A stretch of 64,000 nucleotides of DNA from Escherichia coli. GTDB taxonomy: Bacteria > Pseudomonadota > Gammaproteobacteria > Enterobacterales > Enterobacteriaceae. The stretch is from the NCBI RefSeq assembly GCF_003334405.1, contig NZ_QOWM01000015.1, one strand, 5' to 3'. Positions 32,101 to 38,100 of the stretch are shown here, in pieces. How positions within the stretch are numbered: position 1 is the stretch's first letter; each line of letters starts with the position of its first letter. The position numbers are program-made.

Positions 32101-35100
32101 TCGTGAACTGTTCTTTTATAGATTGTAGTTTTAACGAATTAAGTGGTAGGGAAGATATTTATTTTTTGGGATGTGAATGTGACAATGATGCTATTAATAA
32201 AAAATCTGTCGAGATAAACAGTGAAAATGATCACGATATTACAGATTGTGATATTTACATCTTAGAGAAGTTCTGTCCCAGAGGGAGTGTTAGCTATCAT
32301 AAGCATCGGCCTATAAAAGGCTTATGTTCTAACAACAATCAATTTCAGTTAAGTGAAATACTCCATTCTTTAGATAAATTGAGGAAAGACGGTCTTTTAC
32401 TTACGCCAGACAAGCGTTCGTTCCTTGAACTTAACATGGCAAGAATATCAGAGATTAAAGCAATTCTTGGGAGGAATTTCTGATGTATAACGGGAATGAA
32501 TTGCGAATTATTCAAAGTTTGCAAAAAGATATAGAAGATGAACTTAATCGTATTGGATTACTTTATCGTTTTTTTTCGAGGACAAAATCAGAAAGCTCAA
32601 TAATTAAGAAATATGAAAAAGAGCCTAATAAATACTCAGAGGATGGTAAAAAAATTCAAGACTTATTTGGGGTTAGGATAATATTATATTTTCCTGATGA
32701 TTTATTTATTGCTCAAAAAACACTGGAGAAATTATTCGAAATTGAATCTAAAACCGTAGACGAAACCACGGCTAATCTCTTTGCGGCAACTCGATGCAAT
32801 TACGTCTTTAAGTTACCAGAAGTATTATCAAATGATAGTGTCTTATTAAAGAAATATTCTTATATTGATACTACTTTTGAAGTCCAATTTAGAACTATTT
32901 TATCTGAAGGATGGCATGAAGTTGAGCATGATCTACGCTATAAGTGCAAAGAGGATTGGGTTGAGCATAATGACCTTAGTCGCGCGCTGAATGGAATTTA
33001 CGCCTCTTTGGAAACATCTGATTGGGGAATAATGAAGTTATTTGAGGATTTAGCATATAGAAATTATAAGTCAAGCGCATGGTCCGCTATGCTAAGAAAT
33101 AAATTAAGATTGAGAATGGACGATAAGCTTGATGAAAAGATAATTTCAATAATTAATGAGAAAGAGCTTGGTAAAAAGTTTTATAGAATTGACAGAGATC
33201 GTTTGTTATCGTTAATGTTAGATTATAATATTGATATACCAATTAATCTTAATAATATAATTTACCTTTGTAATTATTTTTTCATAAAATCTACGGAGCT
33301 TCAGGATATAGCCCCTGCTTTAATAATGAAAAAGCTTACAGATGCTGATGAAAAATTCAATAAAAATACTATTTTAGCATCTAAATAATAACTATCTCCG
33401 GCTATTAAGTAGGCCTTGTATTTTAGGCCTACTTAAAAAGTTTCATTATGTGAAGTGATGATGATAGCAAATCTGATATCTTTATGGTTGGATGCGAGAA
33501 AATATTTTTATCCCGACACAACAACTGGTAATGATAGAAAATTTAAACCCAAAAATGCTACAGTAGCCTCAGCTCACAAACGGAGTATAAAGTGGCGGTT
33601 ACTCTTTAGTGGGAATACTGTAGATAGTTGATAAACTGGGCTGGATTTTCTTTTCTAACCGAAGGGAAGAAAAGCAAGGGGAACCCAAAGAAACAAGCGC
33701 AGCGGCTTCGTAGGGTTAGCCCTTGCTTCTTTTATAATTGGCATTATTCATTCAAGAACAATAGGATCTTCGCTTGTACAAGCGAAGCTATAATAAAAAA
33801 TCAATTAATTATTTTAAAAGTATTAAGCAAGAGCCTATTGACATTCGTAAAATAAAAGTTATTTTTAATGTATGCCATAAATAAAAAGTTTTATGTCATA
33901 TGTATCCTGCACTATGTGCAGTTAATGTGCCACTTGTCCCATATATGGGAATATTGGAAAGGTTACTTTGTTTTGAAGTAGCCTTTCGTCCTTCAATATT
34001 CACGATTACTTATTGCTATTACCAAGTCCAGTCGAATCGAAGAACATCTTTTATCTGAAACGACTCCTAATACCAGGTTGAAGCCACAATATCTCTCGCA
34101 TAAGTAGACCAAAGAAAAATTATGATATTAACTATGTGATTTTTTTTAGCGTTAAGTTGAATAATTATATACTGGAGAGTTTTCTGTACACTACCAATTG
34201 CTGGTTCATCTGTTCTGCCGCTGATGTTTCTGACTAATCTCCCGGTGACACAGAACTGTCCCTCTCTACCAGCCTTTATTCGACTCAATGTCCGGCTGCT
34301 GATACGCAGTTATCCCTTCGTATCAATGACTGACTCTTAAACGCAATGCTTTGGTTGCTGGCGTATCTGACAGCTTCTTCGGCGTGAAGGTCGTTGTGTA
34401 AGTATACTTCTTGGTTTATTTAGGCTATATAAAACCATGACTATGACTGGCTGTTTTCAGTAAGAGTCTTATCATCCAAAGAATTTATTCTAGAAATTCT
34501 TTTTAACTCATTAAGATAATCAACCTCGTTTTCTAAGAACCAATGAAGAACTTTAGAGTTGCCAAGTAATTTATTAATATATGACTGGATTATAACGAAT
34601 TTCAACATATCTGAACCATACTCGGTTTGAAGTTTTTTCGTTTCTTCCGAAGTTGTTGCCATTTCTTGTTCCAGACGAAGTATGGTTTTTTTTATGTCCT
34701 TTTTATAGGGAGTGTTTTTCCCTTTATTTACTATCATCGATGACGGTGTTGCATCCAAGATGCTCATTGCAAATTTTTTACTATAATTATCAAAATTAAT
34801 CATTGTACCGACTGCTTCAATTTGACGAATTGGCTTCATTTTCCTCAAAACGTCAAATGTAGCCTTAGGTATAGGTTTATCAGAAAGTTTCGCAATTACA
34901 CTTGGATCTATGCCGTTCATCACATTAGCTTTATCTTTTATGGCATCAACAGATATGCCCAAAGCAGCACTAAGTTTTTCAATTGATACTTTTGCCAGAG
35001 ACTTAATTATCATTCTATGTTCTTCAACTACATTTATATGATTCACTTGTTTGTTAGGAGTGAAAGCATCATCTATGCTCGAAAGTATACATGGAGCTTT

Positions 35101-38100
35101 TTCTATATCTAAGTCTTTTAAAGCCTCAACCCTTAAATGGCCATCAAGTATCTTAGTGACATCTTTATCTTTGTCATAGAATACTATTATTGGTTCAATA
35201 ATACCCAAGCTTTCGATAGAGGTAACTATTTGATGATATTTATGGCTTCGCTTTACGTTTTCTAATAATTCCTTAGATGGAATTAACTTATTAGTTTCCA
35301 GGTAAATAAAATTTTTGCCAAAACGTATCTGAATCATTTTGATACCTCTTTGTTTACTGGGTTTAATATCTGAGATGGTAGTTCTGAAAGATTCTCTTGT
35401 TCAAGTATATTTTGAAAGCTTTTATTCATCATTATGATGTTAAAAATCTCATTTATTATTAGTAGATTGGTTTTTATAAATTTCGAGTTGTTATAAACAG
35501 ATTTATGTTCAGCGATACTATTTTCATAAAGCTCAATCAACTCCTCTGCAGTCATCCTTTTTGATGGTTTGTGATAATAAAATCCGGCTGCTTTTGCACC
35601 TTTATTCCCAACTGTTCTTTGATTTAGAATGTATTTTATCTTTATAATGTCCCGACTTTTTATTAATTTTTTATCATATGCTTCGGTAAGAATATCTTGT
35701 GCTTCCTCAGTTTCACATCTTGCAAATTGCACTGCGAGATACAGAGGCAAATTACCCCGTTCGACTGCTGAGAGAAGTTTATGCTCTCCCTTATCAAGAA
35801 GCATATTAATACTGCTCACCCAGTTCGATGAATATCCAGTAATCTCACTTATTTCGGAGTCTGAAAGTCCTCTGATTTTCATGTCTTTAATCACCTGTAA
35901 TAACTCATTAGAACGTGGTCTTCTCCTTGCAATGTTTTCAACTAAACTCATAACGTAAGCATCTTCTTCTGATACATCTCTTATAATTGCTGGAATAATA
36001 GTTTCACCTAATGCAACAAGAGCCTCTATTCTCCCTTGACCACAAATTAAAGCATATTTGAAATCGTCTTCATCAATAGCTCTTACGCTTATAGGCTTGC
36101 TTAATCCTCTTTTTTTTATGCTTTCCTTTATTTCTTCATGCACTACCTTATTTCTTGTTCGTGGGTTAAGAAATTTTATTTTTGCAATCTCAATTTGAAT
36201 TATTGGGAATTCATTTTTTTCAGGCAGCATATAGTTCCCTCACTTTCATGCGAGTAATAATTTGTAGAAATTTATCAAGATTATCAAATCTATAGAGATC
36301 TAACCGAATGTTGTTTGTTTCCATCATACACATTTTACTATATTCGTTTTCAATCTTTGGTATGATATAAAAATCAAGAGGTGAAATATTTTGTGAATTC
36401 ATTCGTATAACAATTGTTATGTCTGCTTTCTGTGAGTTATCAAACCGGACTTTCCATCTAAGTTTACCTGATTTCATATGTATGCATTTAGTAACAAGGA
36501 CGGAAATTAAAAACTCATCATTGATGTAAAGCATTGGGTAATATTTATACTCGTCTATATGACAGTTACTTTTTAATATTTCGCCCTTAAAATCCTCAAT
36601 TATCTCTGAGTAAAATGATCTTAGTGCTTCATTTATTTGGAGATAGCTGTAATCATGTTCTGGCTTATAACCAATCAAAGTATATGCTCTTAAAAGACCA
36701 CCAAATCGGGTTCTATAAACAGAAGATGAAGGGCCTGTATCATCTTCATCAATGATAAAGCCTGATAGTTTTCCATTAGATTCTAATTTTTCTTTTAGCT
36801 TTTCTAATAGATCTTCATTAGTCAAATGAATGGATCGGAGCTGAATTATTTCTTGAGCTTTATTATATTTTTTCTTTGAAATAATTGGTTTATATGCCTT
36901 GTCACATCTAATCCATTCATGTTTGGGGTTTTTTACAAGCTTACTTTTTAGTTTAGATGAGGTTTTGTTATATATGTTGTTTCCAATATATTTTTCATTT
37001 GTCAAAATTTGATGTATTTTTGCACGAGTCCATGATGTTCCATTTTCTGCAGGTATGCTCTGTTCATTTAATCTCTCAGCAATAATGAATTCTGGGACGT
37101 TACTATCTATAAAGAGATCATAGATTCTATTTACAATTTTTATTTCATTTTTTGGTCCCGGAATTAATATTACCCTATCTGTTTGAATACTCTTTCTTTT
37201 GCGGAAATTCAATATTTCTTTAGCTATGCCATTTTCGTCTACTAAAAGACGTCTCAGCCCATAACCAGCCATACCGCCTTGATGATAACCAAGCTTTATT
37301 AAATTTACTTGCCCTATAAATACCTTTTCAGATAGATTCCTGCTGTGATATGCAGCACTTGATCTTTTTATATTCAGTATAACAGAGGACTCTAAAGGGA
37401 AATCTTTAGTGGGTATAGGTTCGGAACAATATATAAGATCTACACCATTTCTTTCAAATAGAAAGGAATAATATGCAGCTTCATCACTATTTTGAAAACG
37501 ACCAAAACGGCTCACATCATAAAATAATACAGCCTGTATATCTATTTTCTTTTGTTCTACATCGCTAAGTAACTGCTGCAAAGAATGCCTGCCTACGATA
37601 CTGACTCCGCTCTTACCTGCATCATCGTAGGTATAAGCGATTTCCATATTGTTCTTTTCAGCATAATCTTTGATATATTCAGACTGATTATGTAAAGAAT
37701 ATTGCTGATGGTCGGTAGACATCCTCAAGTACTGTGCGACCCTAACTCTATGATTTTTTTCATTTCCGCTAGCCATGCACAAAACCTCATGGATGATTCA
37801 ATACAATGTAGAGGATAAAATTGATCAAATTTTAACCGAATTCAACTGTTTTATCATTGATTAGAGCGAATTTGGTAGTTCTTCGAGGTGTATGATAATC
37901 GAGAAGAGATGTGAATTATTTAGCTGATATGACCGACAGCTTTCGTTATGTGGCCTCAAGGTACCCATTTGTAAATGGCTATGCTTAGTCCACATAGGTT
38001 AATGGTGTGATCATTAATTCTTCAAATAAATCAAGATAGTTAACCCATCATGGAAGAGTTATGCGGCAATAACTTTGTATTTTTGAGACGAAACATAGTC

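Follow-up and report, generated by a model that had tools for sequence, protein, structure and literature searches.

A stretch of 64,000 nucleotides of the Escherichia coli chromosome (contig NZ_QOWM01000015.1 of assembly GCF_003334405.1, hereafter the window) carries an operon of three genes, hereafter the trio, which encodes a large serine recombinase followed by two ParB-like proteins designated ParB-A and ParB-B. Comparison of 80 independently fetched loci clearly showed that this arrangement is kept far beyond chance. In 75 of them the three genes occur in the same order and abut or overlap each other, the other five loci being degraded or cut by contig ends. Although the trio is common (about 12% of the complete E. 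coli genomes and hundreds of other species) and fixed in its architecture, full-text literature searches returned no description of this three-gene combination. The trio is a site-specific recombinase with unprecedented partners, and its relatives add a predicted new RNA family that is notable in its own right. It is tentatively proposed here that the trio could act as a module for ParB-assisted site-specific recombination, to the benefit of its carrier element. The union of serine integrases with cytidine triphosphate (CTP)-dependent ParB clamps suggests a new mode of recombinase targeting, and is relevant to the biology of mobile elements and, possibly, to genome engineering.

A previous reading of the window from its sequence only had described three overlapping minus-strand genes at positions 34441-37776, coding for a serine recombinase of about 518 aa and two ParB/Srx-fold proteins of 298 aa. 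All three open reading frames (ORFs) were confirmed at these positions. The genes overlap by 11 nt and 4 nt, in the order recombinase, ParB-A, ParB-B, and the recombinase ORF extends to 37782 if a TTG start codon is used (36220-37782). The trio is 100% identical to that of strain 300709 and lies in a low-GC island at ssrA, immediately after the P4-type tyrosine integrase of the island.

Domain composition of the three proteins

The length of the recombinase agreed between the ORF and RefSeq, and Pfam identified the domains Resolvase (PF00239, residues 16-154, E = 1.4e-21) and Recombinase (PF07508, residues 212-314, E = 1.1e-21). For the three proteins of the trio the NCBIfam domain assignments agreed with those of Pfam. 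The catalytic Ser20 is intact, and 31 homologs show no variation at residues Y16, R18, S20, R63, D87, R90 and R93. The enzyme thus has the catalytic and recombinase domains of the large serine recombinases, such as PhiC31, Bxb1, SPbeta SprA/YokA, CcrA/B of SCCmec and TnpX/TndX. Its best structural and sequence matches were 9dxd, 9iu2, 9rah and CcrB, and its PHROG match was to integrases. Foldseek aligned an AlphaFold (AF2) model, whose mean predicted local distance difference test score was 79, with the integrases of SPbeta, Bxb1 and PhiC31 only along its first ~320 residues.

In contrast to these integrases, the trio enzyme shows neither zinc ribbon nor coiled coil (no PF13408 match in Pfam and one single conserved cysteine) and ends in a C-terminal region of its own. 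This region (residues ~319-518, window 36220-36822) is predicted to form a helical bundle, with the features of an HNH-repeat-like module, followed by a beta-rich domain, and did not align to any integrase structure. The last ~200 residues are diagnostic of a family comprising 1,387 representative clusters, the majority of them with the same architecture, and the C-terminal region is specific to this family. The zinc-ribbon/coiled-coil domain, which usually serves DNA recognition, is lost from the enzyme. The helical module gave a weak match to Pfam HNH_repeat and suggests a modular DNA-binding unit. Besides, the first ~55 residues of the C-terminal region were found in 3-7 tandem copies in proteins of unrelated length in the representative library. 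Known large serine enzymes work with small directionality factors and are not known to use ParB-like proteins.

Both 298-aa proteins contain the motifs which had been read from the sequence (ICGQGRIEA and ILDGHLRVEAL, respectively), and domain searches supported the ParB/Srx fold. For ParB-A, Pfam returned ParB_N and RepB, and TIGR00180 scored above its cut-off. The motifs GQGR (box II, GxxR) and EN.AR (box III, ENxxR) are kept at a level of at least 90% among 82 homologs, and the sequence matches in the PDB were Spo0J, ParB, Noc and KorB. ParB-B, of which more than 1,373 homologs were counted in the database, matched RepB (E = 7e-24) and weakly ParB_N, and its profile matched Noc and ParB structures. 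In the alignment, DGHLR and NK..N occupy the positions where ParB-A has its nucleotide-binding motifs. The earlier description of both proteins as tandem ParB paralogs holds as far as their ParB-like nature is concerned; with 30% identity over 63 residues (E = 0.003), they are distant paralogs only and not the product of a recent tandem duplication. The PHROG families of both proteins are annotated as of unknown function.

ParB-A shares the N-terminal domain, the GxxR and ENxxR motifs and the helix-turn-helix (HTH) with the CTP-dependent ParB clamps, i.e. ParB/Spo0J, Noc and KorB of RK2. It differs from them in being paired with a second ParB/Srx protein of DGHLR type and co-translated with a recombinase, in having no gene for a ParA or KorA-like partner, and in that no parS was identified. 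The lack of a ParA partner, already pointed out in the sequence-only reading, was confirmed: no ParA/Walker ATPase gene is present in the operon or among the recurrent neighbours of the trio in 85 loci.

These findings bear on the idea of a classical plasmid-type stability cassette, in which a multimer resolvase would be combined with a centromere-binding ParB for partition. The Pfam and NCBIfam names are indeed those of partition-protein families, and the trio is present on large plasmids. Nevertheless, this explanation is considered very improbable given the missing ParA/Walker ATPase gene, a recombinase of the large integrase type instead of a small resolvase, the exclusively chromosomal location of all 658 E. 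coli copies, and the very large size (143-543 kb) of the host plasmids examined. Plasmids of such size are known to carry partition genes of their own. In parCBA of RK2, and in pSM19035 with its beta recombinase, delta/omega and epsilon/zeta, a serine recombinase is likewise combined with partition or toxin-antitoxin functions in a plasmid stability region. As in the trio, a serine recombinase stands there on mobile DNA beside DNA-binding maintenance proteins, often with adjacent toxin-antitoxin genes; toxin-antitoxin genes, typical of stabilisation regions, were also found near the trio. However, the recombinases of those regions are small resolvases or invertases, their partners have unrelated folds, and to our knowledge no fixed overlapping three-gene layout has been described for them.

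Distribution, limits and mobility of the trio

When 100,044 species were scanned, each represented by a single genome, 396 stretches encoding a relative of ParB-B were revealed. Genome loci were chosen via ParB-B homology and metagenome loci, many of them on short contigs, via the sequence pattern of the RNA described below, so that the frequencies obtained from these loci, notably those of the 3' RNA, the small divergent gene and the tRNA-Ser repeat, are biased and do not represent prevalence. Trios were found in Alpha-, Beta- and Gammaproteobacteria; the hosts include Enterobacterales, Xanthomonadales and Burkholderiales, many Alphaproteobacteria and a handful of further metagenome-assembled genomes. 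They are also present on plasmid At of Agrobacterium C58, on a low-GC contig from a human-gut metagenome, and on a Piscinibacter plasmid (L087:1033-9876), where the trio directly follows tnsA, tnsB, tniB and tniQ of a Tn7-like transposon. On the other side of the Piscinibacter trio, a type VI secretion system Vgr/AHH toxin cluster was observed. A tyrosine integrase adjoins the trio in a minority of loci only, and nearly identical trio modules were found in different flanks in different genera. The trio is exchanged horizontally, its carriers being integrative islands and large plasmids as well as a Tn7-like transposon. Its conservation as a unit on mobile DNA, the lack of which would have spoken against the sequence-only reading, was thus established at phylum-level distances, on plasmids and on the gut contig.

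In E. coli, 5,426 complete genomes were covered and 657 of them have the trio, among these the standard laboratory strains REL606 and BL21. The 658 copies, almost always single in their genome, always adjoin one specific integrase allele. Related integrases (60-80% identity; 79% among the matches listed), present in 561 genomes, have no trio beside them, and among the matches listed their homology stops ~33 nt inside the integrase gene. The genes for the NACHT and RelA/SpoT-like proteins next to the trio in the window occur in only 58 E. coli genomes, as compared with 619-657 for the trio; the trio therefore acts as backbone of the island and these neighbours as cargo. In REL606 the island has shrunk to the integrase, the trio and IS1. 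Overall, the trio behaves as a backbone module near one end of mobile elements.

The limits of the module were defined by alignment of the window with REL606, strain ET791 and Enterobacter vonholyi. Homology ends 48 nt past the stop codon of ParB-B, at window position 34393, and the class of E. coli matches with 90-95% identity begins at query position 91-94. The 10-bp palindrome AAGTATACTT (34400-34409) lies within this 48-nt stretch. For other enterobacterial clades the limits of homology lie 0-18 nt beyond the stop codon of ParB-B and 77-200 nt ahead of the recombinase start codon. Terminal repeats common to the clades were searched for and none was found, and the window contains no further copy of the 3' end of ssrA.

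Upstream of the operon, ~45-60 nt from the start codon of the recombinase, an A/T-flanked TGATCA palindrome enclosing a Dam site was identified (37817-37836). A comparable palindrome occupies the same position in the trios of Dickeya, Citrobacter, Limnobaculum, Pantoea/Kosakonia/Erwinia and Samsonia, hence in at least six divergent enterobacterial clades including that of the window, the proteins of which are just ~45-55% identical. Within the window alone the palindrome is a single copy and not above chance. Among possible operators or loading sites, this palindrome is the strongest candidate.

In Agrobacterium, a 3.9-kb unit consisting of the trio and a small divergent gene (see below) is 97% identical in two plasmids with differing flanks, and is bordered by an imperfect direct repeat of 24 bp, the two copies of which agree at 18 positions. 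In Rhodobacteraceae, the elements with a trio start with a pseudo-copy of tRNA-Ser that covers its 3' end (motif TGGCGGAGRG) and is located 0.5-2 kb from the trio (15 of 61 genome loci). One of these loci, L077, contains a single 11.6-kb island between a copy of the tRNA-Ser 3' end and, 11.5 kb away, the intact tRNA-Ser(GGA). A serine integrase of conventional type (608 aa) adjoins the tRNA, and the trio occupies the opposite end of the island. Since the integrase is separate and the trio sits at the far end, the trio is regarded here, as in E. coli, as an accessory backbone module at the edge of the island. The tRNA-Ser-like repeat was excluded as an attachment (att) site of the trio itself, L077 having one repeat pair and a separate conventional integrase.

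A candidate empty site on pSymA of S. meliloti (L210:4489-7933 compared with L211) was also rejected as evidence for mobility of the trio. The 3,415-bp insert, bordered by 30-bp imperfect direct repeats (26 of 30 positions), contains relBE and an unknown gene together with a ParB-B homolog that stands alone, with no recombinase gene. As the S. meliloti plasmid matches are not full trios, the count of plasmid matches overstates the number of trios.

Taken at face value, the near-identical modules in different flanks across genera, the Agrobacterium unit with its repeats and the PHROG match to integrases could indicate that the trio is a minimal mobile element, with the recombinase as integrase or transposase and the ParB-like proteins as accessory or directionality factors, a view close to the sequence-only reading. 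The E. coli data contradict this: 657 genomes have one copy in the same place beside the same integrase. Moreover, the enterobacterial homology ends so close to the ParB-B stop codon that no room is left for an end site, terminal repeats are not shared across clades, L077 has a single island repeat pair beside its own integrase, and the only clean empty site found, that of S. meliloti, proved to be trio-less. With the Agrobacterium repeats as the one observation in its favour, autonomous mobility is judged quite improbable. The nested or tandem second element that had been suggested from the co-occurrence of serine recombinase and tyrosine integrase found no support, because no att sites separate the trio from the island, to which can be added the single-copy state in E. 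coli, the constant association with one integrase allele, the lack of bounding repeats, the conservation of the trio while adjacent cargo varies, and the organisation of L077.

Table 1. Location of the trio, its surroundings in the window and related features in other loci
Feature	Location	Strand	Description
Serine recombinase	36220-37776	-	518 aa from ATG at 37776 (RefSeq annotation)
ParB-A	35334-36230	-	298 aa; ParB/Spo0J/Noc/KorB-like, GQGR, EN.AR, HTH region
ParB-B	34441-35337	-	298 aa; divergent ParB/Srx fold, invariant DGHLR, HTH, RepB-type C-terminal region
Integrase-recombinase spacer	37777-38058	-	282 nt, conserved in three E. coli variants
Conserved 3' stretch after ParB-B stop	34393-34440	-	48 nt, right-hand module limit
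P4-type tyrosine integrase	38059-39288	-	ssrA island; context, outside the conserved trio in other taxa
Transfer-messenger RNA (tmRNA) gene ssrA	39455-39817		Locus of the island
3' RNA, example	L033:7469-7606		Equivalents in ~100 metagenome loci
Small divergent gene, examples	L086:6083-6490, L088:2686-3201		
Equivalent TGATCA palindrome	L005, L011, L015, L023, L024, L025, L027, L030		
tRNA-Ser repeat pair of L077	6116-6139 and 17646-17735		

Possible function of the trio

In the tentatively proposed recombination module, translational coupling would tie both ParB-like proteins to the recombinase, and they would form a DNA-bound complex in which ParB-A is the CTP-dependent clamp-type ParB and ParB-B its divergent partner. 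Loading of the pair would take place at a defined site, the TGATCA palindrome being the candidate, and the pair would supply site recognition or synapsis control to a catalytically intact recombinase of the large serine type lacking the zinc-ribbon/coiled-coil domain, on which such enzymes normally rely for these tasks. Recombination would then serve the carrier element, either by resolving multimers or tandem copies or by controlling a rearrangement at its edge, and would not integrate a separate nested element. The ParB-like proteins may plausibly be accessory factors of the recombinase, as the sequence-only reading had considered. The proposal, which is preferred to the rivals discussed in this text, draws on the fixed order and overlap of the genes in distant taxa, the invariant catalytic residues, the missing zinc ribbon together with the family-specific C-terminal domain, the nucleotide-binding motifs of ParB-A, the backbone behaviour in E. 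coli, the location near element ends, the separate integrase of L077, the upstream palindrome of the enterobacterial clades and the toxin-antitoxin genes nearby.

Several observations weigh against this proposal. No recombination site of the trio was identified. The search for att or resolution (res) sites in the flanks in the window, which the sequence-only reading had recommended, gave only short A/T-rich matches at chance level; att sites of the trio enzyme, which would be expected by comparison with the large serine integrases, were not found either. In strain ET791 (L089), a trio of 92% identity is intact in an argW-associated island while the linked integrase is a pseudogene, and therefore retention of the trio is independent of that integrase. 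As it has no ParA, the trio is not a classical partition system. Among the large genes that directly follow the trio downstream, 18 were sampled and about half of these are restriction- or defence-like, a finding which equally fits a role in defence. Finally, all functional statements are drawn from sequence: the interaction of the three proteins and the binding of CTP are putative, as are the DNA site, any recombination product and the function in the cell.

A role of the trio as anti-phage or anti-plasmid system is the main rival explanation. In such an inter-element conflict, the ParB-like proteins would sense invading DNA or load onto it, and the recombinase would cut or rearrange it. The argument for it is drawn from genomic association only. 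The genes flanking the trio vary widely between loci. The defence-like genes among those sampled downstream code for type I and type III restriction, McrB-like, DrmD/DpdE-like helicase and TIGR04141 proteins, the remaining ones including mobile-element genes; MADS6/PglW-like kinase-helicase genes were also seen near trios. The trio of Agrobacterium C58 is accompanied by AbiEii, Fic and a restriction endonuclease, and in the window a NACHT protein and a RelA/SpoT-like protein are encoded downstream of the trio, with a relaxase gene farther on. A compact operon with sharp limits, a sporadic distribution in E. coli as well as in the species scan, and clear horizontal transfer are also in line with defence, and ParB/Srx-fold domains are known in restriction and fertility-inhibition proteins. 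On the other hand, a search against PADLOC v2 (5,027 models) returned no match for the recombinase or ParB-A and a weak methyltransferase-domain match only for ParB-B, and no NCBIfam anti-phage model matched any of the trio proteins. In E. coli the trio is the conserved backbone while the defence-like neighbours vary, and its position at the edge of elements accounts for the association with cargo without any role in defence. We know of no precedent for a serine recombinase as immune effector. Altogether, a defence function is regarded as rather unlikely, though less so than the other rivals considered here.

A bolder version of these ideas can be formulated as a new recombination machine, in which ParB clamps acting as nucleotide switches would direct a serine recombinase devoid of zinc ribbon, with the help of a dedicated structured RNA in many lineages. 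Mobile elements would employ it either for targeted rearrangement of DNA in a novel form or as a novel type of weapon against competing DNA. This is put forward as an unlikely, speculative possibility.

Structured RNA, small divergent gene and other features

A noncoding element of ~135 nt, starting within ~20 nt of the ParB-B stop codon, was detected in 45 of the 89 loci that had been fetched up to that point. Alignments revealed that this 3' RNA is visibly better conserved than the adjoining 3' end of the ParB-B coding sequence, and it keeps 80-90% identity across distant trios with ~70% nucleotide identity. The predicted fold comprises four hairpins, followed by a terminator-like hairpin. 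In 88 distinct sequences, 97.5% of the cells are able to pair and 19 of 35 base pairs display compensatory changes. Cells with double changes amounted to 232, compared with 8-33 in slid controls, and this was reached in 0 of 500 shuffles. For many G-U pairs, pairing holds on the sense strand only. In the metagenome scan, 98 of 109 testable copies directly follow a ParB-B gene. Rfam searches with five loci gave no family at the gathering threshold, and the E-value mode returned only a chance microRNA match (16.9 bits); a fragment of tmRNA or tRNA or a known ribozyme thus found no support in Rfam. From covariation and conservation, the 3' RNA is predicted to be a new structured RNA family, which is well supported and has a clear genetic partner.

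Using a covariance model and nhmmer, the 3' RNA was not found in the window nor in the enterobacterial, Stenotrophomonas, Agrobacterium, Piscinibacter and gut-contig loci. The presence of a structured RNA directly after the last gene of the trio in many relatives is reminiscent of the IS110 bridge RNA and the TnpB/IscB omega RNA. This is a resemblance only, as those systems involve another recombinase family, whereas the RNA of the trio has no obvious variable guide loops and is absent from E. coli. One locus (L029) contains two copies in the same orientation (10889-11024 and 17650-17785), the sole double copy seen, which flank a cassette of two genes. One of them codes for a kinase-helicase of 1,652 aa that resembles MADS6/PglW, the other for a protein of 560 aa. 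The idea of integron-like arrays of RNA-bounded cassettes, raised by this locus, was dismissed as a general feature on finding exactly one copy in each of 78 metagenome loci.

Directly ahead of the recombinase gene, 42-43 loci, those of Agrobacterium and the gut contig among them, carry a small, divergently transcribed gene. This gene is absent from E. coli and did not match any NCBIfam family. The encoded protein has a conserved N-terminal motif, and its sequence varies more than the trio, as would an immunity or regulatory region.

Further features were noted around the trio. In strain ET791 it lies between two fragments of tyrosine-integrase genes. Its neighbours there are a His-Xaa-Ser (hxsABCD) cluster and a member of the TIGR04141 family, which also follows the trio in Pantoea (L023). 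A scan of the window for promoters and terminators gave no excess over the shuffled expectation. At window positions 30369-33388 (+), the gene of a NACHT-domain ATPase (704 aa) abuts that of a RelA/SpoT-like nucleotide pyrophosphokinase (301 aa). Start and stop codons of the two genes overlap by one base, and the pair, for which no PADLOC system was matched, looks like a two-gene module of defence type. In the RefSeq annotation of strain 300709, the RelA/SpoT region appears as two short coding sequences (264 and 381 nt) and not as one 906-nt ORF. Finally, a tRNA-Met (CAT) was located at 11160-11235 (+), in a low-GC region far from ssrA, and may mark a second, adjacent island or be an island-borne tRNA.

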